Shown here piece after piece: positions 37,979-52,657 of a DNA stretch of 54,794 bases (positions are counted from its first letter, which is position 1; the number at the start of each line of letters is the position of its first letter). The translations under genes were made by a program, and so were the position numbers. Under the pieces are notes generated by a model. The model saw only the letters and a program-made list of their open reading frames with translations. It was not told where the DNA came from and made no database searches. The DNA comes from an archaeon (GTDB lineage: Archaea > B1Sed10-29 > WALL01 > JAGHAM01), in contig JAIOSL010000050.1 in the NCBI GenBank assembly GCA_021107635.1, positions 1-54,794 of the forward strand. Reading direction: 5' to 3'.

Positions 37979-38269
37979 ATGAAAGATTGTCTATGGGAGC
38001 TTTTACAGCGTATCCCAAAGGGAAAGGTCACTACATATAGTGAGTTAGCGAAAGTGTTAGGTACCTCTCCTAGAGTAATAGGTAGTCTACTTCGTTCTAA
38101 TAAAGATTTAGATAGTATTCCTTGTTATAAAGTAGTTATGTCAAATGGTCAATTGGGTGGTTATTCTTTAGGTGTTACTGAGAAGGTTAAGAGATTACAT
38201 AAAGATGGAGTTTACGTAAACAAAGGTAAAATAGCTAGTTTTGATACTGTTTTGTTTAGCTATCAGTAG
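37979..38269 (+). CDS. single-domain O6-alkylguanine DNA alkyltransferase (MGMT family)
   Basis: IPKGKVTTYSELA, SPRVIG, IPCYKVV (PCHR-like), LGGYSLG. Confidence 0.9.
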   Translation: MKDCLWELLQRIPKGKVTTYSELAKVLGTSPRVIGSLLRSNKDLDSIPCYKVVMSNGQLGGYSLGVTEKVKRLHKDGVYVNKGKIASFDTVLFSYQ

Positions 38270-38377: not shown

Positions 38378-39613
38378 TTAAATAGCTTTTTCCCTTAATC
38401 CTAATAGAATCAAGAAAGGAGAGACTAGAACAGAAACAAGTACTACTGCAATGACACTTGAGTAAACAAACGCACCTACGTTACCACCAAGAATATTACC
38501 TCCTCCTTTTGCAACAGCAGCCAGAATTACTAACCCAACACCCCCTCTAGGAACCATTGCTAATCCGATAATAGCAGAAGATTTTAGTGGTATCTTACCA
38601 AGTAATGCTCCTATGAAGCTTCCTAAAAAGTTTCCGAAGAGGGCAACAGCAATCAATATTATCATTACCGGACTCCAAAATGGCAGAGAAAAGCCACCTT
38701 CTGCAGTAGATGTAACTGCAAGCATTCCCATCCATGCAAAAAAGATAGGAACAAAAACACCATATGAAAGAGAAGCGAGCTTATCTGAAAAATTTCTTTC
38801 TCTCAATGGACTTCTTGAAACTATAATTCCAGCAAGAAACGCACCGATAACACCATGTAAATTAAATGCACCTACTAAAACTGCAAGAGCTAGCATTACT
38901 ACAAAAGCTAAAGTAAATTGAGCTTCTTCAACTTCTAAACTAGCAGTATACTTAACAATTGCTGGTAAAATGTTAATTCCTACAACAAACAAGACAAACA
39001 AGATTACTGCTACTGAAACTATAGAAAGCAATGCTGGTACCATAGCATCTATTCCTCCAGGCAGCAAAGCAGAGAGAGCAGTAAAAACAGCCAAACCAAA
39101 CAAAGCATCTATAACTCCTGTACTCAACACTACTTTCCCAACTTGCGTGTTAAGTTTTCCTGCTTTAATTAGAACTTTCATGCTAGTAACAACAGAACTC
39201 ACTGATAAACAAGCAACTAGAGTTGCTCCACCAACAAAACCAATCGCATGGTCAAAATTTATTGGATCTATCACATGAGCATTCACTGCAACGAGAGCAA
39301 TAGCAATTGCAGGAATAATAAAACCAAGAATAGCTGAAGCATACGTAGCAGTCTTATTTTCAAGTAAATGTGTAGTATTAAGTTCACGCATTCCTGCAAC
39401 AAAAAGCAGTAATATCGCTCCTAACTGACCAAAAATTGCAATGTTTGCACTTGGTTCTACTAACTGATGAAGTCCAATTAGGTTACCCCCAAAAACCAAA
39501 AACATTCCAGCAACTAAATAACCCAATACGCTAGGAAAGTTTAATCTTTCTGCTATTTCTCCAAAAATCTTGGCTAGTATAAGTAATAAAACCAACGTCA
39601 GCAGAAATTCCAT
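38378..39613 (-). CDS. cation:proton antiporter (CPA2/NhaP-like)
   Basis: About 12 TM segments; PSVLGYLVAG, LLLFVAG, TGVIDALFG, GAFLAG, FVPIFF, MVPRGGVG. Confidence 0.9.
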   Translation of the reverse strand: MEFLLTLVLLLILAKIFGEIAERLNFPSVLGYLVAGMFLVFGGNLIGLHQLVEPSANIAIFGQLGAILLLFVAGMRELNTTHLLENKTATYASAILGFIIPAIAIALVAVNAHVIDPINFDHAIGFVGGATLVACLSVSSVVTSMKVLIKAGKLNTQVGKVVLSTGVIDALFGLAVFTALSALLPGGIDAMVPALLSIVSVAVILFVLFVVGINILPAIVKYTASLEVEEAQFTLAFVVMLALAVLVGAFNLHGVIGAFLAGIIVSRSPLRERNFSDKLASLSYGVFVPIFFAWMGMLAVTSTAEGGFSLPFWSPVMIILIAVALFGNFLGSFIGALLGKIPLKSSAIIGLAMVPRGGVGLVILAAVAKGGGNILGGNVGAFVYSSVIAVVLVSVLVSPFLILLGLREKAI

Positions 39614-39700: not shown

Positions 39701-40429
39701 ATGCCACGAAAACGCCAGTTAATTAAAAAAAGCAAGACAGCAAAAGGGCGCCTGCACAAACAAGGAGAGAAATATAATGGCAATCGTCATCTGAACAACT
39801 TGGAAATATACAAGCACCTCACTCCCAAATCCAAACGGTGTGTCGAAGCAATGCTGCACAAAGTTGTTGAAAATTGGGTGCTCAATGAAAGAGCAACAAC
39901 GCTTGCAGAGATACGTGCCATAGCAAAAACCAGTGCTCTTTGCTACCCAACAGAAATAAAAAAACAATATCCTCACCTCAAAAACATATATCCTGAAACG
40001 TTTCTCAGAGAAATATTACCCTACCTTCCAGTGTCTGCAGGACGATATTTTGTTAAGAAAAGAGGGCACTGGAAAAAACCAAACATTATCGACCAAACAA
40101 TGCACAAAAACATACAGAATGCATTTCCTTTAACCAAAGGGAGATATTCTAAAAAGGATACTGCTGTTTCAACACCTCAAGTAACCGAACTCTTGAACAA
40201 GAGTGAGCATGCATGTAAGTTGGAAGTCTTATTCTTTCCTTCTTCCACAGCCAGGAAAGTCTCCACCACCGGCTTCCTGAAAAAACTGGGAAAAATCAAT
40301 GATAACCGTCTTAAAGAATGGGGATTGATTCCTTCCAAAAAAAACCAAAAAGCAGTCAAACACATTTCTAAATGGGAAATAAGTAAAGTAATAAAAGTTA
40401 TCAAGAAAGCAGATGTAAAAACTATCTAA
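39701..40429 (+). CDS. orphan paralog family member 1
   Basis: ILPYLP, MHKN, EW and KWE motifs shared with 41636 and 51676. Confidence 0.75.
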   Translation: MPRKRQLIKKSKTAKGRLHKQGEKYNGNRHLNNLEIYKHLTPKSKRCVEAMLHKVVENWVLNERATTLAEIRAIAKTSALCYPTEIKKQYPHLKNIYPETFLREILPYLPVSAGRYFVKKRGHWKKPNIIDQTMHKNIQNAFPLTKGRYSKKDTAVSTPQVTELLNKSEHACKLEVLFFPSSTARKVSTTGFLKKLGKINDNRLKEWGLIPSKKNQKAVKHISKWEISKVIKVIKKADVKTI

Positions 40430-40448
40430 AAAAATAGGCCATATACTC

Positions 40449-41159
40449 TTAATCTTTTTTCTTTTCAACACTTGCAAAATAAGCTTCTTTTGGCAAACGA
40501 TGCAATACTATCATATAAAAATAGTTTCTTAAAAATTTCCAGAGAGTTTGCAAATAACCTTTCTTATGGAACCGTCTTGGTGAGGAAGCAACCCAATTAT
40601 CTGGAATATAAACACATTTTCCTTCTTTTTTGATTCTGTTAGAAATTTCAGTGTCTTCCAAAAAACTCATCTCTTCATTAAAACCACCAATTTTATCAAA
40701 AACACTTTTTCTGAAAGCACAACTTTGTCCACTAAACTGATAAATATGAAAAAACGAGGTAAACCTATAACCCCAATCCTGATTAAGTTTGAATAAAACT
40801 TTGTCAATAAGTGTACCTTCTAATGGTCTCACAGGGCCACCAGAAGCAACCACTTTCGGATCCTCAAAAACTTTAGCAAACTTTTCAAGCCAATGAGGAT
40901 TAACCACAGTATCTGCATCAATGAAAACAAGAACGTCTCCCTTCGCTAATTTTGAGCCTTTGTTGCGCGCTGGTCCTGCTCCTTGACTTTCATTATCTCT
41001 TACAGCATTACCATACTCTTTAGCAATATCATACGTTCTGTCATCCCCACCTATAATTATGATTATCTCATAATCATCATAAAACTTAGATCTAATCGAT
41101 TCAAGGCAGGCTTTGATGTTGTTTTCTTCGTTATATGCTGGGATTATAACAGAAATCAA
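40449..41159 (-). CDS. glycosyltransferase family 2
   Basis: SVIIPAYNEE, GAGPARNKG, VFIDAD, GGFNE, EDTE. Confidence 0.93.
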   Translation of the reverse strand: MISVIIPAYNEENNIKACLESIRSKFYDDYEIIIIIGGDDRTYDIAKEYGNAVRDNESQGAGPARNKGSKLAKGDVLVFIDADTVVNPHWLEKFAKVFEDPKVVASGGPVRPLEGTLIDKVLFKLNQDWGYRFTSFFHIYQFSGQSCAFRKSVFDKIGGFNEEMSFLEDTEISNRIKKEGKCVYIPDNWVASSPRRFHKKGYLQTLWKFLRNYFYMIVLHRLPKEAYFASVEKKKD

Positions 41160-41162
41160 AAG

Positions 41163-41360
41163 TCATTCCTTCTCTTCTTCTGTTTTTAGCCTTGTGATGT
41201 ATCCTGCGACAATATTCCTATCGGTTTTGGAATAGTCAAACAATCCTGTTTCTCTGACTTTTACTTTGTTTTCTTCATACTTGTCAGTAAACTTTTCAGG
41301 GTATCTATTGTACAGTTCTTGGGCCTTGTTTTTCAAAATACTTGTCATTTGTTTTCCCAT
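41163..41360 (-). CDS. rps17e: 30S ribosomal protein S17e
   Basis: AQELYNRYPEKFTDKYEENK ... RNIVAGYITR; ATG 41360 after GGAGG. Confidence 0.88.
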   Translation of the reverse strand: MGKQMTSILKNKAQELYNRYPEKFTDKYEENKVKVRETGLFDYSKTDRNIVAGYITRLKTEEEKE

Positions 41361-41362
41361 AA

Positions 41363-41530
41363 TCATTCCTCCAAGATTGTAATAGGCACTACATCTTTTT
41401 CAATTTCTTCTAAAGCCAAGTCTATTGGTGTTGCTTCTTTGCTAGGTTTTACTAGTGGAGGAGCACCCATTGCAAGCTGTAGAGCGCGTGCGCCTAGAAT
41501 TCTTGCTTTTTCATATTTTGTGTATATCAT
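41363..41530 (-). CDS. rpoK: DNA-directed RNA polymerase subunit K (Rpo6), 55 aa
   Basis: Manual translation [28 protein letters not shown]...[18 protein letters not shown]; absent from the ORF track. Confidence 0.95.
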
Positions 41531-41635
41531 CTAATCTACCTCTAGACCAAAGAATAACGTAATATTCTAACCACTGGTATTTATAAAACCTTTCTGTGCC
41601 GTTCACTTATTAACTCTAAATTTATAAATATCTTC

Positions 41636-42295
41636 ATGCGTAAGAAGTCAAACTACAAAGGACACGAATATCTAAACAAGCACCCAACGTACCAAAGATT
41701 AGAATCCGCAGGCAAACAAAAAGTAGAAAAAGGCATAAAATATGTCCTCAAAGAATGGCATGCAGGAAAAGCGGTAAAAACATCTGAACTACGCAAATAT
41801 CTCAATGACACAGCAGTCAGGTATAAACCACCTAACCAAGAACCTATCCAAAACCGAAAGGTTACTTCCATCTTAAAAGAAATTCTTCCTTACATTCCTA
41901 TCAGAACAGGAAAACTTTTCACTAGACAGTCGAACGGCACTCCACCAATAACCGATTCTGCAATGCACAAAAACCTAAGAAACGGATTCACAGGATTGAA
42001 TTCCCCTATCCTAATAGCAAGCGGTCAATCCCGAAACAAAACAATAAAAAAACTCAACCAAGAAGCTCCTTCCACAAACCAAGAAGTCATATTCTTTCCC
42101 TGTCATTCAATAAATGAAGTATCAACCCAAGAATTTCTTGGCAAACTCTCTCCCTTTTTCAAAGAACGTAAACACGAATGGTTTCTAGGCAAAAAACCAG
42201 TTGAACCCAACCATTACTTCTATCTTGCAAAATGGGAAAAAGAACAACTAGAAAAAATGAAAAACCCAAAGACCAAAAAACCCCACCATCCATAA
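41636..42295 (+). CDS. orphan paralog family member 2
   Basis: ILPYIP, MHKN, EVIFFP, EW, KWE. Confidence 0.75.
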   Translation: MRKKSNYKGHEYLNKHPTYQRLESAGKQKVEKGIKYVLKEWHAGKAVKTSELRKYLNDTAVRYKPPNQEPIQNRKVTSILKEILPYIPIRTGKLFTRQSNGTPPITDSAMHKNLRNGFTGLNSPILIASGQSRNKTIKKLNQEAPSTNQEVIFFPCHSINEVSTQEFLGKLSPFFKERKHEWFLGKKPVEPNHYFYLAKWEKEQLEKMKNPKTKKPHHP

Positions 42296-42302
42296 CAAAC
42301 CA

Positions 42303-42971
42303 ATGCACCTTCTATGGGACAAACCTGCCATCTTACTAAACGATGCCCTTCTAGTCGGAGACCTACATATTGGTTTGGAACAAGAACTCTTCTACCATGG
42401 CATCCGGCTCGCATCAACAACCAAAAGAATGAAAGAAAAAATCATAGAAATGCTGAAAGAAACCGGAGCAGAAAAACTGTTTCTAATGGGTGATTTGAAG
42501 CATCGGATCGCTTCAGTAAGCGCGCAGGAAGCTAGAGAAATACCTGAATTCCTAAAAGAATTATCTAAACATGCAGAAATAACCGTTATCCTCGGGAACC
42601 ACGATGGAGGACTAAAACCTTACTTAAAAGAAGTTAATTTTTATGACGCGCGAGGCTTTGTGTATACTGACCAATGCTTAATTCATGGTTCTGCTAAACC
42701 ATTACCAAACGACCTGAAAAAAAGCAAAGGAATCATTGCATCTCATTGGCATCCAGTATACACATTCAGAGACCGCCTTGGTGCTCAAACAGAAAAAGTA
42801 TGGGTTCAAGCTCACGCGCTTGGCAAACCATTACTACTCATGCCTTCATTCAATCCTCTTCTAGGCGGCGTTGACGTAAGAAAAATAACCAATAAATGGA
42901 TAGAACTTAACAATGCTGAGATAACTCTACTGGATGGCGTATCTTTAGGAAAGTTGTCACTGAACAGTTAA
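42303..42971 (+). CDS. calcineurin-like metallophosphoesterase
   Basis: GDLHIG, GDLKH, GNHD, HG and HWHP motifs. Confidence 0.9.
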   Translation: MHLLWDKPAILLNDALLVGDLHIGLEQELFYHGIRLASTTKRMKEKIIEMLKETGAEKLFLMGDLKHRIASVSAQEAREIPEFLKELSKHAEITVILGNHDGGLKPYLKEVNFYDARGFVYTDQCLIHGSAKPLPNDLKKSKGIIASHWHPVYTFRDRLGAQTEKVWVQAHALGKPLLLMPSFNPLLGGVDVRKITNKWIELNNAEITLLDGVSLGKLSLNS

Positions 42972-43038
42972 TTATATAAAACTATTAACTTACTAATAGT
43001 TTCACTCTTCGTGGGAGAGGGGACCAAGAGGAGAAAAC

Positions 43039-43362
43039 ATGACCAAACAACATTCATCTGTGATTGAAGATATTCGTATATTCGAAGAACAGCAAGAACA
43101 GAGACTTGAAAGAGCAAAAGACGCGAGTGCTAGCGCTACAAAAGAACTAGAACAAAACAGAGCGACCGAACTTAAAACAGCAGAAGAAACACTACTAAAA
43201 GAAAAACAACGACTTGTCGCGCAAGCAACAGAACAAGCAAAAGAAGATGCATCAATTGCATTGAACGAATATTCTTCTAGAGCAGAAGAATTGAAAGCAA
43301 AAAGTAGCAAAAACGAGAAAGACGCAATCGAAAAATGCTATGCTCTCCTGCTAGAAGAATGA
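43039..43362 (+). CDS. atpH: A/V-type ATP synthase subunit H (G)
   Basis: Charged coiled coil at the head of the ATP synthase operon. Confidence 0.75.
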   Translation: MTKQHSSVIEDIRIFEEQQEQRLERAKDASASATKELEQNRATELKTAEETLLKEKQRLVAQATEQAKEDASIALNEYSSRAEELKAKSSKNEKDAIEKCYALLLEE

Positions 43363-43375
43363 CCGGAGGAAAACA

Positions 43376-45301
43376 ATGTTTTGGCCTGCTAAAATATATC
43401 ATGCCACGCTTTTAGTTCCAGAAGAAAAGAAAAACGCGCTCATTCTAGCTTTGCATGAGGAAGGAGTATGTCAACTATCCGAGTCCAAACGAAACCTTCC
43501 CAAACAAAACAACGAAAAAGTCCGTGAAATTGAACTTCGTTTGACTGAATTACTTGTTAAACTTGAACCATACAAAGAAGTCCCACAACCAGAAAACCTA
43601 ATCAAAAAAATGTTCTTTCCTTGCAAACCAGAAAAAACAGTAGTAGAAATCAGAACCAACAAACAAATAACCCAAGAAGTAGAAGAAAAATTAATAAAAC
43701 TAGAAAAACCACTGCTCAACAAACTTAACGAACTAGAACAAAAAAGAGAAAAAATAATTGAACATAAACAAAAAATCAACGAACTACTCTCATTTCCTGA
43801 ACTAAACACCAACCTCCTAGAACCAGACAAACAAATCCACACAACAATCGGTGCAATCACATCAACATCAATTCCAGAACTAGAACAAAAACTAGAAAAC
43901 AAGCCAGTAATATTTCTAACTCACGAAATGACAAAAGAAAAACAATTCATTGCTTTACTATACCCACCAGAAAAAGAAAAACACATCACCAAAAATCTTC
44001 ACGAAATAGGATTTGAACAGCTTGACATACAATACCACCCATCCACACCAAAACAACAAGCACTCTCAATCAAACAACAATGGATCCAAGAACGACAAGA
44101 AGGAATCTCACTCAAAAAAGAATTACGAAAAGCAACCAAAGAAAACTATCACGCTCTAGAATTATTTCAAGAAGAAATCACAATCTGCAGAGAAAGAATA
44201 GATGCATTAAATTCACTTGGTGGAGGAAAATCCTTTTCAATCCTAGAAGCATGGATACCAGCAAAAGAAGCAGAACACTTCAATACTATTGTCAATAGAC
44301 TCTCACAAGAACACTACCTAGAACTAAAAGAACAACAAGAAGCGCCAACCCTCCTCAAAAATCCCTCAATAGTAAAACCATTCGAACTGCTCACAGAACT
44401 ATACTCCTATCCAAAATATGGCAGACTAGATCCCACACCCATACTAGCCCTAACTTACGCCATATTTTTCGGCTTCATGCTAACAGACGCAATTTATGGC
44501 ATACTTTTAGTACTAGGAGCTTATGGAATCTACAGAGGCATGGGAAAATACCAACCAGGACTACGTCAATTCTGTGCACTCCTAATAATATGCGGCGTTG
44601 CCACAGCTATCCTTGGAGCACTGCTAGGCTCTTACCTTGGAGACCTGCCAAAACAATTAGGAATTCAAGTTCCTATGCTGCTTGATCCAATGACAGACAT
44701 CCTACTCCTAGTAGCTATCACAGTAGGCATTGGTGTGCTACATTTAGCACTAGGACTAGTACTTGGAATAATAGACAAAGTAAAACACAAAGAATACTAC
44801 AAAGCAATTTCCGACCAAGGAGTATGGCTCTTATTCCTCACAGGAATGATCCTAGCCATAATTGGCTCATTCATACCACTGTTTACTACGCCAGGCATAG
44901 GGTTAATCATTCTCTCAGCAATACTAAAGATGGCGTTTGTTTTCAAAGACGAAGGAATAGTCAGTTCAATCCTCTCCATTTTTGGATTCAGCGGATTCGT
45001 AGGAGACATATTTTCCTACACAAGATTAATGGCTTTAGCAGTTGGCACAGCAGGAATCGCGCTAGCAGTTAACTTCATGGCCTTAATGGTAATCGATCTA
45101 ATTCCCATAGTAGGCATAGTAATTGGAATCACAATTCTTCTAGTAGGCCACACATTCAACATGGGAATGAACGGCCTAGGTGCATTCGTACACGGCTTGA
45201 GACTACACTTCCTAGAATTTTTCACAAAATTTTATGACGGAGGAGGCATACCCTACAAGCCATTTTATGCTACACGTAAAATTACTGAACTAAAAAGGTG
45301 A
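43376..45301 (+). CDS. atpI: A/V-type ATP synthase subunit I (a)
   Basis: PTLLKNP, DPTP, FGFMLTDAIYG, SYTRLMALA, HGLRLHFLEFFTKFYDGGG. Confidence 0.95.
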   Translation: MFWPAKIYHATLLVPEEKKNALILALHEEGVCQLSESKRNLPKQNNEKVREIELRLTELLVKLEPYKEVPQPENLIKKMFFPCKPEKTVVEIRTNKQITQEVEEKLIKLEKPLLNKLNELEQKREKIIEHKQKINELLSFPELNTNLLEPDKQIHTTIGAITSTSIPELEQKLENKPVIFLTHEMTKEKQFIALLYPPEKEKHITKNLHEIGFEQLDIQYHPSTPKQQALSIKQQWIQERQEGISLKKELRKATKENYHALELFQEEITICRERIDALNSLGGGKSFSILEAWIPAKEAEHFNTIVNRLSQEHYLELKEQQEAPTLLKNPSIVKPFELLTELYSYPKYGRLDPTPILALTYAIFFGFMLTDAIYGILLVLGAYGIYRGMGKYQPGLRQFCALLIICGVATAILGALLGSYLGDLPKQLGIQVPMLLDPMTDILLLVAITVGIGVLHLALGLVLGIIDKVKHKEYYKAISDQGVWLLFLTGMILAIIGSFIPLFTTPGIGLIILSAILKMAFVFKDEGIVSSILSIFGFSGFVGDIFSYTRLMALAVGTAGIALAVNFMALMVIDLIPIVGIVIGITILLVGHTFNMGMNGLGAFVHGLRLHFLEFFTKFYDGGGIPYKPFYATRKITELKR

Positions 45302-45305
45302 AAAA

Positions 45306-45791
45306 ATGGTAGCTTTAACAGGAACCATCCTAGCACTCTTTGGTGCTGGAATCGCACTTGGAATCGCAGGCATCTGCACCGCCCTCGGCCTGATGGCCGC
45401 AGGAATTTCCGGAGCAGGCGCAGTAGCAGAATCCAAGGAAAACTTTAAGAACGCCATGATACTGCAAGCAATGCCGCAGACCCAGACAATATACGCGTTT
45501 ATTACCGCGCTGTTCATTGTCATGGGAACCGGTCTACTCAGCGGAGCAGGCAAAGAAGTCACAATGGAAACCGGCTTCATCATGCTTGCTGCAGGAGTAA
45601 TTGTTGCTTTAACAGCAGTATCAGCAGTGTTCCAAGGAAGAATATCCGCAGCAGGAATTGCTTCCTGCGCAAAAAACCCTGATGCTTTCGCCCCGAGCAT
45701 CGTGTTCTCGGGACAAGCAGAAACACCTGCAATTTTCGGCTTCGTGGTAGCGCTAATCATTCTAGTAGTAGGAGTAGGCGTTCTCGCATAA
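45306..45791 (+). CDS. atpK: A/V-type ATP synthase subunit K (c), double hairpin
   Basis: Four TM segments; MPQTQTIY, FQGR, QAETPAIFG. Confidence 0.94.
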   Translation: MVALTGTILALFGAGIALGIAGICTALGLMAAGISGAGAVAESKENFKNAMILQAMPQTQTIYAFITALFIVMGTGLLSGAGKEVTMETGFIMLAAGVIVALTAVSAVFQGRISAAGIASCAKNPDAFAPSIVFSGQAETPAIFGFVVALIILVVGVGVLA

Positions 45792-45800
45792 GGTGAAAAC

Positions 45801-46343
45801 ATGCAAGTGTACGGGAAAGCGGAAGACCTAAAAGAGTTCATACAAAAAAAGTATGACTCAGAGATAGACGAAGTCAAAAAACAGCAGGAACAAAAGTCAG
45901 CAGAAATCAAAGAAGAAACATCCAGGCAGATTGACACGCTCACACACAAAATTGCTGCTCAAACACACAAAGAAGTCGCACAAGCAAAAAGCAAGACTTT
46001 AAGCGAAGAAAAACTTAACGCAAAAAAACAGTTTGAACAATCACGCGAAGAATTAATCAACTACATCTTCTCTGAAGTCGAAAACGGCTTGCCTTCACTA
46101 GCACACAGCAAACGTTACACCACCTACCTAACAAAAAAAACCAAAACATTAGACACCAAACACTTTAAAGTGCTAGCAGACAGCGACTACTACAAAAAAA
46201 TGTTTTCGAAACACACTAAAAGCGATGCAATCGGAATAAAACTAACATCCGGTGACATAATCTATGACTTCACTCTGAGCACAGCATTCCAAGCAAACAA
46301 AGAACTCCTCAGAAGAGAAGCAAGCAAAGTCCTCTTTAGGTGA
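45801..46343 (+). CDS. atpE: A/V-type ATP synthase subunit E
   Basis: N-terminal coiled coil, globular C-terminus, operon position. Confidence 0.8.
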   Translation: MQVYGKAEDLKEFIQKKYDSEIDEVKKQQEQKSAEIKEETSRQIDTLTHKIAAQTHKEVAQAKSKTLSEEKLNAKKQFEQSREELINYIFSEVENGLPSLAHSKRYTTYLTKKTKTLDTKHFKVLADSDYYKKMFSKHTKSDAIGIKLTSGDIIYDFTLSTAFQANKELLRREASKVLFR

Positions 46344-46347
46344 ACCA

Positions 46348-47436
46348 ATGATAGAATCAATAGCGCTGCTAGGCTTTGGAAGCGCAATAGTAGTAGGAGT
46401 AGTATACTTCGCTGTAAGACAGACAATACCAGTTGTACCCTTCCTATATGCCAACGCCAGAATCCAAGCCAAAAGTAAATACCTTGTGAAAGACACACAA
46501 TGGCCAGCGCTAGCAGAATCCAAAAGTCTCTCAGAACTGACTAATAACTTACGAGACACTGAGTATGCTGAAGAGCTAGACAAAGTAAACGACATATACT
46601 ACTACCACATCTCAATTGAAAAAAGCTTCTCAAAAAGCATAGAAGAAATAAAAGAAGCTACACCCGACTCGATAGACCCATTGTTCGACGCATACCTCAT
46701 GTTTTGGGAAGCCAAAATGCTCAAAACCTTTTGTAGAGCATTCCTCACAGGACAAGAATTCAAAGAAAACCTAGTCTTTCCCGTAGGCAGAATAACCACA
46801 CAAATGATAACACACCTAAAAGAAGCAGAAACAACAGCAGACATAAACGTAGTACTCGCAGGAACACCCTACCAAGACATCATAACAAAAGAACATGCTA
46901 CTCTAGAAGAACTAGAAGTAGCACTAGACAATTTTGTCTTCCACTACTTCGTGAACCAAGTAAAAAACACTAAAATCTACGAAGGCAATCTAGTCATCGA
47001 CCTGCTCAACTTCAAATTTGACATCCAAAACCTCCTAGTACTACTAAAAATGGAAGCTAGAAACGTCCCACGCGACCAACGAGAAAAATACCTGATAAAA
47101 AATGATACTTCACTGTACACACTAAGACACCACTTAATCAAAACAGAAAACATTCAAGAATTCGTTGAACAATGCTCGCGATTGCATTATCACGAACCAC
47201 TCTCAGAAGCACTTGCACTATACGAACAGGACGGTTCACTCTCACACTTTGAACGCGTGCTACAACAATACTTCAAAACAACCATCCTCAAACTTGAACG
47301 CCTACACTTCCAAGGACCCTACTCCCTGTTCACACACCTAGTCAAAAAAGAAATTGAAATGAAAAACATCATGATAATCAGCAAAGGCATCCAATCAAAA
47401 ATGTCTCCAGAAGAAATCAAGGAGCTGATACTTTGA
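46348..47436 (+). CDS. atpC: A/V-type ATP synthase subunit C
   Basis: FLYANARIQA, LAGTPY, KKEIEMKNI; operon position. Confidence 0.9.
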   Translation: MIESIALLGFGSAIVVGVVYFAVRQTIPVVPFLYANARIQAKSKYLVKDTQWPALAESKSLSELTNNLRDTEYAEELDKVNDIYYYHISIEKSFSKSIEEIKEATPDSIDPLFDAYLMFWEAKMLKTFCRAFLTGQEFKENLVFPVGRITTQMITHLKEAETTADINVVLAGTPYQDIITKEHATLEELEVALDNFVFHYFVNQVKNTKIYEGNLVIDLLNFKFDIQNLLVLLKMEARNVPRDQREKYLIKNDTSLYTLRHHLIKTENIQEFVEQCSRLHYHEPLSEALALYEQDGSLSHFERVLQQYFKTTILKLERLHFQGPYSLFTHLVKKEIEMKNIMIISKGIQSKMSPEEIKELIL

Positions 47437-47714
47437 TCATCCTAGGCAACCCAAGTTTTGCAACAGGAATGAAACTAGCAGGAGTCAAACAAAGCTACGT
47501 AGTCCAAGACAAAGAAACTGCAGCCAAGATTTTCCCAGAAATCCCAAAGCAAGAACTTGTTGTTGCAAATACCAGCGTAGTAGACCTTTTTTCTCCACTG
47601 GAAGAACTTGAAAACCTAGTCACAATTCCCGATGATCCAGAAGCATTCAACTCAGTCGACGACCTCAAAAACATAGTTAAAACAGCAATAGGATTCGATA
47701 TCAAACTAGAATAA
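47433..47714 (+). CDS. atpF: A/V-type ATP synthase subunit F
   Basis: [22 protein letters not shown]; TTG start. Confidence 0.88.
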
Positions 47715-47724
47715 GGTGAAAATA

Positions 47725-49458
47725 ATGACCACTGGAAAAATATCTAAAATTGCCGGACCTGTCGTAACAGCATCTAAAATGAAAGGCGCAAAAATGTACG
47801 ATGTTGTTTCCGTAGGCGAAGAAAAACTCTTAGGAGAAATCATTGAATTAGAACAAGACAGAGCAATAATTCAAGTCTACGAAGAAACCACAGGCGTAAG
47901 ACCAGGCGAGCCCGTAGAAAGCAAAGGCATGCCCCTTAGCGTTGAGCTAGGACCAGGACTGTTAAATCATATATACGATGGAATAGCAAGACCATTAAAA
48001 CTGATTACAGAACAAGCAGGAGATTTCATCACCAGAGGAGTAAACGTTCCAACACTAGACGCCAAGAAAAAACATGATTTCAAACCAGCAGTAAGACCAG
48101 GCGACACCGTTATTCCCGGTCAAATACTAGGCAGAGTTCAAGAAACATCACTCATTGAACACAGAGTTCTTGTTCCACCAGACATACAAGGCAAAGTCAA
48201 ATCCATTGAAAACGGAGACCAAACCATAGAAGACACTATCGCAGTAATCCACACAAACAAAGGAGACAAAAAAATCACAATGCGACAATACTGGCCAGTA
48301 CGCAAAGCCAGACCATTCCAACAAAAACTAGCTCCAGACATTCCACTCATTACAGGCCAAAGAGTCTTTGACTTCATGTTTCCCGTAGCAAAAGGAGGAG
48401 TAGCAGCTATTCCCGGACCCTTCGGCAGCGGAAAAACAGTAAGTGAACACAGCCTAGCAAAATGGTGCGACGCAGATGTTGTAATCTTCATCGGTTGCGG
48501 AGAAAGAGGAAACGAAATGAGCGACGTCCTCCAAGAATTCCCAGAATTAATCGACCCAAAATCCGGAAAGCCTCTGATGGAACGCACTGTTCTAATAGCT
48601 AACACCTCAAACATGCCAGTAGCAGCAAGAGAAGCATCAGTATACACAGGAATCACAATGGCAGAGTACTACAGAGACATGGGCTATGACGTTTCTTTAA
48701 TGGCAGACTCAACAAGCCGCTGGGCAGAAGCAATGCGTGAAATCTCTGCAAGACTAGAAGAAATGCCAGGAGAAGAAGGATACCCTGCATACCTCTCATC
48801 AAGACTAGCACAATTCTACGAACGCGCCGGCCGAGTAATCAATTTGAACTCCAGTAAAGGATCCATATCAGTAATCGGTGCAGTCTCACCTCCAGGAGGA
48901 GATCTATCTGAACCTGTAACACAATCAACGCTACGCATAAGCAAAGTCTTCTGGGCGTTAGACGCACCGCTCGCGTATTCGCGCCACTTCCCAGCAATCA
49001 ACTGGCTTACCAGTTACACATTATACGACAAAGCCTTAGCACCATACTTCAACAAAGAAGTTGCTTCTGACTTCACAAAAGTCAAAGCACGCACCATGAC
49101 CCTACTTCAAAAAGAAGCAGAACTCAAAGAAATAGTGCAATTAGTAGGCCCTGATGTCTTACCAGAAAACGAAAAACTCATTCTAGAAACCAGTAAATCA
49201 ATCAGAGAAGACTTCCTACAGCAGAACGCATTCCATGATGTAGACGCATACTGCTCACTAACAAAACAATACAAAATGATAAAAACCATCCTACACTTCC
49301 ACGACGTAGCACTAAAAGCACTAGAAAAAGGCACGAAAGTTGTAGACCTGGCAAACCTACCAGTAAAAGAAAAAATCGGCAGAATGAAATATGACCAAAA
49401 CTTTGAGGACCACACCCCAAGCCTGTGGAAGCAAATTGAACAGGAGGTGGAAGCATGA
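47725..49458 (+). CDS. atpA: A/V-type ATP synthase subunit A
   Basis: [35 protein letters not shown]; no intein. Confidence 0.98.
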
Positions 49459-50897
49459 TCAAAGAATACACTTCAATCAGCAGAGTCGCAGGACCACTAC
49501 TAGTTGTAGAAGGCGTTAAAGGTATTGCATATGCAGAACTAGTGCACATAACCACACAAACAGGAGAAGAAAGACTAGGCCAAGTCTTAGAAGCAAGAGA
49601 AGACATGGCAATTGTCCAAGTATTCGAAGGAACCGGCGGAATCGACACAAAAAACACCAGAGTACGATTCACTGGTAAAACTCTTAAACTCGGCGTCAGC
49701 AAAGAAATGCTTGGCAGAATATTCAACGGAAGAGGAGACCCAATCGACAACGGCCCAAAAATCCTGCCAGAAAAAGAACTAGACATCAACGGAAACCCAA
49801 TAAATCCTTATGCAAGAGACGTACCAGAAGACTTCATACAAACAGGAATCTCAACAATCGATACAATGAACACCCTAGTACGAGGACAAAAACTCCCAAT
49901 CTTCTCAGGAGCCGGACTCCCACACAACATGCTTGCCGCACAAATAGCAAGACAAGCACAAGTAAAAGGAAAAGATTCATTCTCAGTAGTTTTCGCAGCA
50001 ATGGGAATCACAAAAGAAGAAGCACTATTCTTCCAAAATGAATTCGAACGCACAGGATCACTTGAAAACGTAGTCATGTTCCTAAACCTAGCTGATGACC
50101 CGACAATCGAACGCATTGTTACACCTAGACTTGCACTCACCACAGCAGAATACCTAGCATACGAATGCGGAATGCACGTGCTAGTCATACTCACAGACAT
50201 GACCAACTACTGCGAAGCCCTAAGAGAAATCTCTGCAGCAAGAAACGAAGTGCCCGGAAGACGAGGCTATCCAGGATATATGTACACAGACTTGTCCACA
50301 ATCTACGAACGCGCAGGCAAAATCAAAGGACGACAAGGATCAATAACCCAAGTACCAATCCTAACAATGCCAGACGACGACATTACCCACCCAATTCCCG
50401 ACCTCACAGGCTACATCACAGAAGGACAATTTGTGCTAAGCAGAGACCTCCACATGAAAGACATATACCCACCAGTTATTGTCCTGCCATCACTATCCAG
50501 ACTAATGAACAAAGGAATTGGAGAAGGCAAAACCAGAGAAGACCACTACGACCTCTCAAACCAACTCTACGCAGGATACGCTCATGGCAACGAAGTACGC
50601 GATTTAATGGCAGTAGTAGGAGAAGAATCACTCAGCGAAATCGACCGCACATACCTAAAATTCTCAGACCTATTTGAAGAAAAGTTTGTAAAACAAGGAT
50701 TTGAAGAAAACCGCACCATAGAAGAATCTCTAACTATCGGCTGGGAACTACTCAAACTGTTACCAGCAAAAGAACTGAAACGTATCAAAGAAAAATTCAT
50801 CAAAAAATACCATTCTCCAGAAGGCCGACCAGACGAACCAACCAAAAAAGGCCTGACAATCCCACCAAAAGAACCAAAGAAAAGCCCAGAGATGTAA
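49455..50897 (+). CDS. atpB: A/V-type ATP synthase subunit B
   Basis: [39 protein letters not shown]. Confidence 0.98.
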
Positions 50898-50898
50898 C

Positions 50899-51513
50899 AT
50901 GGCAAGACTCAAACTAACACGCATGGAACTACTCAAACTAAAAGTAAAGCGCAAGCTAGCCGAAAAAGGATATCGCCTACTAAAACAAAAACGAGACACC
51001 CTAGTAATGGAATTCTTCGGTACACTCAAAGAAATACAAGCTTTACGCAAAGGATTCGGACAAAACTTCTCAAAAGCACAAAAAGCAATGCAAAGAGCCC
51101 AAGCCCTCCAAGGCCAACCAGACGTCGCAAGACTCGCGCTAGGCACAGCATCCGGAGTCGAACTAGAACAAACAACACGAAACGTAATGGGCGTTCAAGT
51201 ACCTATAATAGACTTAAAACCAGTTGAACACCAATGGTACGGCTACTACGAATTCACCGTTGAACTTGACGAAGCAGTAGCACTCCACCGCGAACTACTC
51301 CCAGACCTACTCAAACTCATCGAAAAACAGCTCGCACTCCGCAAACTAGCAGACGAAATAAGGAAAACCAAAAGAAGAGTCAACTCACTCGAATACATTG
51401 CCATTCCACGCTTAAAACACGAAGAAAAACTCATCACATTAAAACTTGAAGAACTAGAACGCGAAAGCTTCTCAAGACTAAAAGTCATAAAAGCAAAAAG
51501 TGAAAACAAATGA
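50899..51513 (+). CDS. atpD: A/V-type ATP synthase subunit D
   Basis: TRMELLKLK, GYRLLKQKRD, KTKRRVNSLE, LEELERE. Confidence 0.96.
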   Translation: MARLKLTRMELLKLKVKRKLAEKGYRLLKQKRDTLVMEFFGTLKEIQALRKGFGQNFSKAQKAMQRAQALQGQPDVARLALGTASGVELEQTTRNVMGVQVPIIDLKPVEHQWYGYYEFTVELDEAVALHRELLPDLLKLIEKQLALRKLADEIRKTKRRVNSLEYIAIPRLKHEEKLITLKLEELERESFSRLKVIKAKSENK

Positions 51514-51635
51514 AAGAATGGGAAATACGAAAAAACTATGTTCTGCTACTAGCCTATCAAGTCGCTAACATAACAATGGTCCTAGGATTTTTCTTTATAC
51601 TCTTTTTAGCATGTAAACAACTCGGACTATTCTAA
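51510..51635 (+). CDS. 41-aa single-TM microprotein coupled to atpD
   Basis: ATGA overlap with the atpD stop; MKEWEIRKNYVLLLAYQVANITMVLGFFFILFLACKQLGLF. Confidence 0.55.
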   Translation: MKEWEIRKNYVLLLAYQVANITMVLGFFFILFLACKQLGLF

Positions 51636-51675
51636 AACCTAAAGCTAATAACCATTAAACAACAATAATTAATCA

Positions 51676-52305
51676 ATGAAATATTCTGGAGATCCCAACC
51701 TCAACAAGTACCAATTATACAAAAAACTCACTCCACTATCAAAACAAAAATTTGAAAAAATACTTGAAAAAGTACTTATAAATTGGCACAAAAACAGAAA
51801 AGCGACAACAACACACGAACTCCACAGATATGGAATGTTAAATTACACTGAAAACAAAAAACAAAAACACATAGGTGCAAGTGCAACCCTGAAAAAAATT
51901 CTTCCATACATACCAACACAAGCAGCATTCTTTTTTGGAACAAAAGACACACAACATACATCCATACTCCACCAAAACATGATCACCATACTAATACAAA
52001 AAAAGACACTCCGCAAATCTACAAACCTACCAATAAAGCAAAGACTGGCAAATCTAAACAAAGAAGACCCACCAAGCCACTACAAACAAGCCGCATTATG
52101 TCCAATAACAGAACTTGAAAATGTTTACACACACGAAGTAATACACACATTTACACACAATCAAAGAAAAATAAAACAAGAACGATTAAACGAATGGGCA
52201 CTATCAAAAAAAGCAAAGACTTACGACCCAATAAGAAAATGGGAACACAACAAACTCAAAGAACTCAAAATAAAACCAAGAGTTTTAAAACCAAAAAAAG
52301 CCTAA
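51676..52305 (+). CDS. orphan paralog family member 3
   Basis: ILPYIP, LHQN, RLNEW, KWE. Confidence 0.75.
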   Translation: MKYSGDPNLNKYQLYKKLTPLSKQKFEKILEKVLINWHKNRKATTTHELHRYGMLNYTENKKQKHIGASATLKKILPYIPTQAAFFFGTKDTQHTSILHQNMITILIQKKTLRKSTNLPIKQRLANLNKEDPPSHYKQAALCPITELENVYTHEVIHTFTHNQRKIKQERLNEWALSKKAKTYDPIRKWEHNKLKELKIKPRVLKPKKA

Positions 52306-52312
52306 TAAACAC

Positions 52313-52657
52313 ATGAAACAAGCCATCATACTTCGCACAGACCTAAACATGGGAAAAGGCAAACTATGCGCGCAAGCCAGCCATGCAGCAATAGAAACAT
52401 TTATTCTAACCACACAAAAACAACCTGAATGGGCAGAATTATGGCTAAAAGAAGGCCAAAAGAAAATAGTCCTACGCGTCTCAAGTGAACAAGCACTAAA
52501 AGACCTATTCCTAGAAGCAAAAAGAGAAGTACCTGCCAAACTAATAGTTGATGCAGGCCACACTCAAGTAACACCAGGCACAACCACTGCACTAGGTCTC
52601 GGTCCTGCACCAGAACCCGTGCTCGACAAGTACATCTCAAGATACAAGCTTCTGTAG
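52313..52657 (+). CDS. pth: peptidyl-tRNA hydrolase, Pth2 type
   Basis: RTDLNMGKGKLCAQASHA, GQKKIVL, DAGHTQV, TALGLGP. Confidence 0.96.
   Translation: MKQAIILRTDLNMGKGKLCAQASHAAIETFILTTQKQPEWAELWLKEGQKKIVLRVSSEQALKDLFLEAKREVPAKLIVDAGHTQVTPGTTTALGLGPAPEPVLDKYISRYKLL

Follow-up and report, generated by a model that had tools for sequence, protein, structure and literature searches.

A lineage-restricted family of small basic proteins, with four diverged copies in the genome of a DPANN archaeon

INTRODUCTION

The genomes of DPANN archaea carry lineage-specific, fast-evolving orphan families, which belong to the archaeal genomic "dark matter" (overview, PMC6393860). Here we analyze a family of this general character that came to light in a 54,794-nucleotide contig (GenBank JAIOSL010000050.1; hereafter, the window, meaning the whole of that stretch). 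The source genome (G000) belongs to a Diapherotrites/Iainarchaeota-type DPANN archaeon, and its assembly has 1.2 Mb in 60 contigs and is 88% complete. We call the family X, alias the LPYxP family; the name covers four paralogs of this genome, X1 to X4, and their homologues. Like the DPANN orphan families, X is small, basic, and unannotated, occurs in a few tiny archaeal genomes in zero to four copies, evolves fast, and lies between housekeeping genes. Unlike those families in general, X has a confidently predicted fold of about 220 residues with no analogue in the PDB or BFVD, and it recurs directly 5' of translation and tRNA genes. The family itself is undescribed, and its general character, that of a rare, fast-evolving, basic orphan of variable copy number between housekeeping genes, is familiar from DPANN genomes.

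Three other kinds of described system bear some likeness to X. Yeast Arc1p, bacterial Trbp111, and the metazoan AIMPs are noncatalytic cofactors of aminoacyl-tRNA synthetases whose OB-fold (EMAP/Trbp111) domain binds tRNA. X resembles them by functional analogy only, as it is basic and putatively nonenzymatic and adjoins genes of aminoacyl-tRNA synthetases and tRNA enzymes. However, the X model is mainly helical, no match was found to the Pfam tRNA-binding family tRNA_bind or by Foldseek, and X is not a member of this group. Free-standing homing endonuclease genes, such as the seg and mob genes of phage T4, are solo genes that are present or absent at exact intergenic sites between essential genes and are co-oriented with them, and the same is true of X. 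In contrast to the T4 genes, X lacks the motifs and the fold of a nuclease, its copies are old and diverged, one copy is stably inherited, and searches of phages and plasmids gave no relatives. Finally, the winged-helix regulators (MarR, Rex, LexA, and RepA N-terminal domains) are similar to X in size, charge, and position at the front of an operon, and the order of their N-terminal elements is loosely alike. However, the best Foldseek match of X had an E value of 3.1, with probabilities of 0.06 at most, and the X model has an insertion of about 20 residues where the turn of a helix-turn-helix (HTH) would be expected.

RESULTS

Four diverged copies of a basic protein

Three open reading frames (ORFs) on the plus strand of the window encode related proteins. 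X1 (P0001; positions 39701 to 40429; 242 aa; isoelectric point [pI], 10.3) lies between a Na/H exchanger gene and the genes GT2-S17e-RpoK, all of which are on the minus strand. X2 (P0002; 41636 to 42295; 219 aa) is an extra copy between the RpoK and metallophosphoesterase genes. X3 (P0003; 51676 to 52305; 209 aa) is a further extra copy, more diverged, between an A-type ATPase operon and the gene of the peptidyl-tRNA hydrolase PTH2. Composition-adjusted BLASTP aligned the three proteins over nearly their full lengths, with E values of 3e-22 for X1 and X2 (28% identity), 3e-18 for X1 and X3 (33% identity), and 4e-16 for X2 and X3 (30% identity). Their alignment contains 38 invariant columns and the motifs LN..Y..L..K..E..V..W, L(R/K)(E/K)ILPY(L/I)P, (M/L)H(K/Q)N, FFP/LCP..V.T, EW.L, and KWE. 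The initial annotation of the window had described three colinear homologous ORFs with these motifs, encoding basic proteins of about 210 to 240 aa. We recovered the ORFs, the full-length homology, and every listed motif, and the proteins have 209 to 242 aa and pI values of 10.0 to 10.3, which are among the top 11% or so of the ORFs of the genome. Neither a signal peptide nor a membrane segment can be seen in the sequences.

A profile search of the whole assembly revealed a fourth copy, X4, which is an intact ORF of 219 aa on contig C47 (L004:1474-2133). Therefore, the paralogy reported earlier is real, but the family in this genome has four members instead of three. The four copies are 23 to 34% identical to each other, and in a crude all-against-all comparison, X ties for the 7th to 12th largest paralog family of the genome. 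The coding strand is A-rich and the proteins are Lys-rich, as would be expected if the likeness had arisen by chance among Lys-rich low-complexity or noncoding ORFs. However, the full-length composition-adjusted BLASTP E values of 1e-16 to 1e-22, the intact orthologues in at least four other assemblies, and the high AlphaFold confidence argue against such an artifact, which we consider extremely improbable. X is a real, previously undescribed, lineage-restricted protein family with four diverged copies in the source genome.

Distribution of the family

The initial annotation had suggested building a hidden Markov model (HMM) of the family and searching the genome and metagenomes with it; this approach, complemented by word-indexed searches, produced X4 and about 21 clusters overall. 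When 1.84 billion representative proteins were searched exhaustively with an HMM, only 12 matched at E ≤ 1e-3, four of them from the source genome itself. Word-indexed searches of 5.8 billion clusters then added a subgroup from halophiles. The roughly 21 clusters form three subgroups. Subgroup A comprises X1 to X4 together with P0005, P0006, P0008, and P0009 from close relatives, and its members contain 18 to 24% Lys plus Arg. Subgroup B (P0010 to P0013 and P0016) comes from metagenome-assembled genomes (MAGs) labeled Candidatus Diapherotrites by NCBI. Subgroup C (P0015 and P0017 to P0023, the latter 59 to 83% identical to P0015) comes from hypersaline MAGs, some of which are labeled Ca. Saliniplasma and Thermoplasmatota. 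An hhalign comparison linked subgroups A and C with a probability of 85% and an E value of 6e-6. The source names of the matches are "hypothetical protein" throughout.

Among GTDB species genomes, an X match was found in 5 of 61 relatives and in 4 of 31 genomes of the same class, and the source genome alone has more than one copy. G003 (96% complete) and G005 (88% complete) lack X but have kept the neighboring genes. The extra copies X2, X3, and X4 had no close relatives in the 1.84-billion-protein or cluster searches and are known from the source genome only.

None of the 21 members reached a curated cutoff in Pfam-A, NCBIfam, PHROGs, or PADLOC, where the best hits were chance matches of 12 to 16 bits; those in PADLOC were to Cas8b (16 bits) and ThsB (12 bits), neither above noise. 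Searching PDB sequences with the family profiles gave no match below an E value of 0.03. The statement in the initial annotation that no known family could be recognized thus holds in all of these searches. That annotation had also named two outcomes that would speak against a new family, an insignificant alignment and a match to a described family, and neither occurred.

X1 is the ancestral copy at a conserved position

Synteny was assessed by tblastn of the window genes against the loci of relatives, together with the genes called there. The X1 site is anchored on one side by the Na+/H+ exchanger gene (38378 to 39613, minus strand; PF00999) and on the other by the block GT2-S17e-RpoK (Rpb6) (40449 to 41530, minus strand; PF00535, PF00833, and PF01192). 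The order exchanger (-), X (+), GT2 (-), S17e (-), RpoK (-), metallophosphoesterase (+) is shared with L013 and partly with L015 and L016. The exchanger gene adjoins X in L013 and L015, and it is also near X in L014, where about 5 kb of other genes separates the two and GT2 is gone from beside S17e. The position of X1 is held by P0005 in L015, P0006 in L016, P0008 in L013, and P0009 in L014, with one X copy per locus. Because they share the exchanger/GT2-S17e-RpoK arrangement, X1 and these four genes are positional orthologues. The GT2-S17e-RpoK block is also present in L013, L016, L038, and L039, and in L038 (G005), the gap of about 87 bp between the exchanger gene and GT2 is an empty X1 site. 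X1 is the ancestral, vertically inherited copy, at a position conserved in at least four diverged relatives.

Scores against a profile built from the four single-copy orthologues only were 224 bits for X1, 205 for X2, 94 for X3, and 81 for X4. X1 and X2 are near the ancestral sequence, and X3 and X4 have drifted and have lost parts of LPYIP, MHKN, FFP, and EW. In subgroup A, the X orthologues are 32 to 42% identical, whereas the genes that flank them are 60 to 84% identical. Therefore, X evolves fast in this subgroup.

Two further features of these loci were recorded. The 5 kb in L014 (L014:3131-7946, on a 1.17-Mb contig) is made up of genes without annotation, one of which has a weak match to PKD, and is absent from the window. 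Genes for an MGMT-like DNA_binding_1 protein and a PRC-barrel protein lie near X in the window (37979 to 38269), in L014 (1256 to 1549), and in L032 (5769 to 6095), which is the locus of a distant member.

The extra copies directly precede housekeeping genes

X2, X3, and X4 are all co-oriented with a housekeeping gene and located immediately 5' of it. X2 precedes the metallophosphoesterase gene (42303 to 42971, plus strand; PF00149), whose product is 66 to 70% identical to its counterparts in L013, L014, and L016. X3 precedes the PTH2 gene (52313 to 52657, plus strand; PF01981; E = 4e-36). X4 precedes an HAD hydrolase gene on contig C47 (L004:2130-2771) and overlaps its start by 4 bp. The distance to the downstream ATG is +7 bp for X2 (TAA-caaacca-ATG), +7 bp for X3 (TAA-taaacac-ATG), and -4 bp for X4. 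TATA-like A/T boxes were found by eye 20 to 35 nucleotides upstream of the ATG of X1 and of X4.

Relatives have the same sites without X. Between RpoK and metallophosphoesterase, where X2 lies in the window, there is a 108-bp spacer in L013, a spacer of 172 bp in L016, and a GNAT gene in L014. In L013, L038, and L039, PTH2 comes directly after the metallophosphoesterase gene, which leaves the X3 site empty. The initial annotation had placed the paralogs among housekeeping genes as scattered copies and had proposed a look for empty sites in relatives; the context in the window and the X-free X2 and X3 sites bear this description out.

Several observations concern the surroundings of these copies. 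The X2 and X3 junctions (window positions 42293 to 42305 and 52303 to 52315), TAAcAAACcaATG and TAAtAAACacATG, are identical at 10 of 13 positions; they are short and the strand is A/C-rich, and the likeness may be due to chance. The HAD gene behind X4 is itself one of three paralogs, and a tandem pair is located at C43:26710-27986. In G009, a relative of the same order, an orphan of 226 aa (L040:1288-1968) lies between metallophosphoesterase and PTH2 and ends 3 bp before the PTH2 ATG. We considered it as a diverged X3 orthologue and rejected it, with an hhalign probability of 0.1%. Orphan genes seem to land repeatedly in the slot 5' of PTH2. Behind PTH2-GNAT in the window is P0004 (53267 to 53836, plus strand), an orphan of 189 aa with a pI of 9.95 and no Pfam or NCBIfam match. 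It was also rejected as a fifth member of the family (hhalign probability, 0.1%), and it has marginal similarity to the G009 orphan over 31 residues (E = 0.013). In front of X3, a 41-codon ORF (window positions 51510 to 51635, plus strand), MKEWEIRKNYVLLLAYQVANITMVLGFFFILFLACKQLGLF, has a 4-nucleotide overlap (ATGA) with the atpD stop codon and one hydrophobic segment. Its product may be a small membrane protein, added to those of the A-type ATPase operon.

Gene context in other genomes

Elsewhere in the family, X is found in the co-oriented contexts ProRS-X-IleRS, X-SerRS, X-DRG GTPase, DHH-X, and UPF0047-X. An additional copy lies between archease and RtcB in L007 (G010:C20, from a genome that is 61% complete). 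It contains one TGA and two TAA stops that split it into ORFs of 71 aa and 92 aa, and it is either a pseudogene or the result of an assembly error. Genes acting on tRNA (PTH2, IleRS, SerRS, and RtcB) make up four of the seven distinct codirectional genes downstream of X. If 5 to 10% of genes act on tRNA, a background rate that is our own estimate, the binomial P value of this post hoc count is between 2e-4 and 3e-3. We treat the enrichment of tRNA genes downstream of X as a lead only.

In subgroup C (L019/L022/L046), the gene behind X is SerRS in one of two lineages and DRG in the other, and G058 has an empty site upstream of DRG. Between the two lineages, X is 62% identical but the DRG GTPase only 48%. 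This change of site, together with the higher identity of X, points to either relocation or lateral transfer.

The DHH-X arrangement in L032, where X follows a DHH/RecJ-like gene, and the existence of four paralogs had led us to consider X as a GINS-like replication factor (Gins51/23). This candidate was rejected: the genome has its own canonical Sld5-domain gene on C42 (26 bits, above the cutoff), and X has no Sld5 match.

Conserved residues, nuclease motifs, and signs of mobility

Across the 21 members, the P of LPYxP is the sole invariant residue, and the P of FFP is nearly invariant. At least 90% of members retain Ser27, Glu53, and Asn144 (numbered as in P0005), the second Pro of LPYxP, and an aromatic residue where helix 1 has its W, and 76% retain Asp109 (same numbering). 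The initial annotation had stressed conserved aromatic, His, and Asn residues. All three are seen in the alignment of X1 to X3, but the His and Asn of MHKN are confined to subgroup A and are lost in X4.

From these residues in a basic protein, the initial annotation had suggested a nucleic-acid-binding or nuclease-like domain that spreads as solo genes. Taken further, X would be a selfish, free-standing gene of the homing endonuclease kind that copies itself 5' of essential genes. The presence or absence of X at exact intergenic sites fits this idea, as do the constant co-orientation of X with a housekeeping gene and its tight placement against it, the similar X2 and X3 junctions (TAA, 7 nucleotides containing AAAC, and ATG), and the halophile SerRS and DRG sites, with the DRG site empty in G058. 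However, neither Pfam searches by sequence nor Foldseek searches by fold found GIY-YIG, HNH, LAGLIDADG, or PD-(D/E)xK in X, and the 21 members share no catalytic motif, a single Pro being their only invariant residue. The nuclease-like character is therefore not borne out, whereas nucleic-acid binding is plausible. Neither is ongoing spread, because copies with 23 to 34% identity do not reflect recent movement. X1 has remained intact at one site, where it has been inherited across at least four diverged relatives, while its neighbors diverged to 60 to 84% identity, unlike the cycle of invasion, decay, and loss of homing genes. No inverted or direct repeats or target duplications flank the copies, and DNA repeats shared between copies are limited to the conserved coding motifs. 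No relatives were found by tblastn in 50,697 phage and 72,556 plasmid records, and there were none in a scan of IMG/VR. In view of this evidence, we regard a homing-endonuclease-like gene as very unlikely. An insertion sequence, transposon, or MITE was rejected, as was cargo of a phage, plasmid, or provirus: flanking inverted or direct repeats, target duplication, and a transposase were lacking, and phage, plasmid, or viral relatives were not found in these collections.

A different selfish origin can be imagined, in which X would be a selfish or semiselfish archaeal chromosomal gene with a novel fold that installs itself 5' of essential genes (PTH2, SerRS, IleRS, RtcB, DRG, and metallophosphoesterase) and persists through their expression and indispensability. 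The four copies and the SerRS/DRG switch of the halophiles would then be traces of past moves. We hold this to be a long shot.

The conserved residues also bear on another proposal, namely, that X is a conflict or accessory protein (of defense, counterdefense, toxin-like action, or host interaction by an episymbiont) or an unrecognized enzyme, with an arms race behind its evolution and patchiness. The occurrence in 4 of 31 class genomes, the copy number of zero to four, and the orthologue identity of 32 to 42% against 60 to 84% for the neighbors are in keeping with a conflict protein. The change of position in the halophiles, where X is 62% and DRG 48% identical, is compatible with lateral transfer, and the conserved Ser, Glu, Asp, and Asn could form an active site. 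However, PADLOC gave no match above noise, and the sequences show neither a signal peptide nor a membrane segment. Moreover, X has no cotraveling partner gene and no island context and instead sits inside housekeeping operons. We consider this proposal unlikely.

Predicted fold

AlphaFold2 produced confident models of X1 (from 6 sequences; predicted local distance difference test [pLDDT], 81; predicted template modeling [pTM] score, 0.80) and of P0005 (from 21 sequences; pLDDT, 87; pTM, 0.83). Both models are compact single units that run, in the same order, from a long helix through a small helix/strand region at LPYxP and several short helices around the FFP strand to a C-terminal helix of about 30 residues. 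The predicted structure is a compact alpha/beta fold, mostly helical, with a few short strands. Structure prediction followed by Foldseek had been proposed in the initial annotation as a way to place the family. For the two models, the best E values were 3.1 in the PDB (obtained twice) and 4.3 in BFVD, compared with the threshold of E ≤ 1e-3, and so the models have no analogue in either collection. Judged against PDB and BFVD structures only, a new fold is a lead that these models offer.

The models bear on the possibility that X binds DNA, either as a local regulator of the operon that each paralog heads or as a lineage-specific nucleoid-associated protein, with a divergent winged-helix-like N-terminal half. 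The basic pI, the different gene behind each paralog, and the fast evolution and expansion would suit such a protein. In the models, residues of about 40 to 120 (helix, strand, and helix, followed after an interval by helix and strand) are loosely winged-helix-like, and the recurring Foldseek matches were all to winged helices: the Rep-DNA complex 5kbj_C twice, Rex (3ikv), and the LexA DNA-binding domain. However, these matches had E values of 3 to 8 and probabilities of 0.06 or less and are noise, and no HTH family of Pfam matched any of the 21 members at E ≤ 1. Winged helices are so common in the PDB that a model with a pLDDT of 87 would normally reveal a real one. Genes such as those of SerRS, PTH2, and IleRS are not known to be usually controlled by dedicated local regulators, which also counts against this possibility. 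We therefore think it improbable that X is a DNA-binding protein of this kind.

DISCUSSION

We tentatively favor a reading in which X is a putative noncatalytic, nucleic-acid-binding accessory protein that would be coexpressed with the gene it precedes. Nucleic-acid binding is suggested by the compact predicted fold, the pI of about 10, the Lys plus Arg content of 18 to 24% in subgroup A, and the lack of conserved catalytic residues. RNA or tRNA would be a somewhat likelier ligand than DNA, because genes of tRNA- or ribosome-handling enzymes (IleRS with ProRS upstream, SerRS, PTH2, RtcB with archease upstream, and DRG GTPase) recur immediately downstream of X and because no canonical HTH is detectable in spite of the confident models. 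X is thus possibly linked to tRNA or translation. In this proposal, old duplication within the genome would have given rise to the extra copies X2, X3, and X4, each of them would be cotranscribed with the gene behind it, and the protein would act by binding nucleic acid without catalysis.

Several findings weigh against the accessory-protein reading. Three of the seven downstream genes (metallophosphoesterase, HAD, and DRG) do not act on tRNA, such small genomes consist mostly of housekeeping genes, and the enrichment test was made post hoc. The slot before PTH2 is filled in G009 by an unrelated orphan, and such slots may tolerate any insert. A translation factor would not be expected to be as patchy as X (4 of 31 class genomes). 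The conserved polar residues Ser27, Glu53, Asn144, and Asp109 leave room for an unrecognized enzyme. Finally, the timing and order of the duplications are not resolved by a maximum-likelihood tree, in which the branches are long.

Whichever reading holds, the first interpretation of the window has to be corrected, as neither a nuclease nor an active mobile element is supported by the evidence. Should the X fold really lack a known analogue and the protein bind tRNA or RNA beside synthetases, PTH2, and RtcB, then X would add a new accessory component to the translation apparatus of genome-reduced archaea and would make a clean target for structural biology and biochemistry. Otherwise, it would be one more DPANN orphan family between housekeeping genes and a marker of gene birth and duplication in very small genomes.

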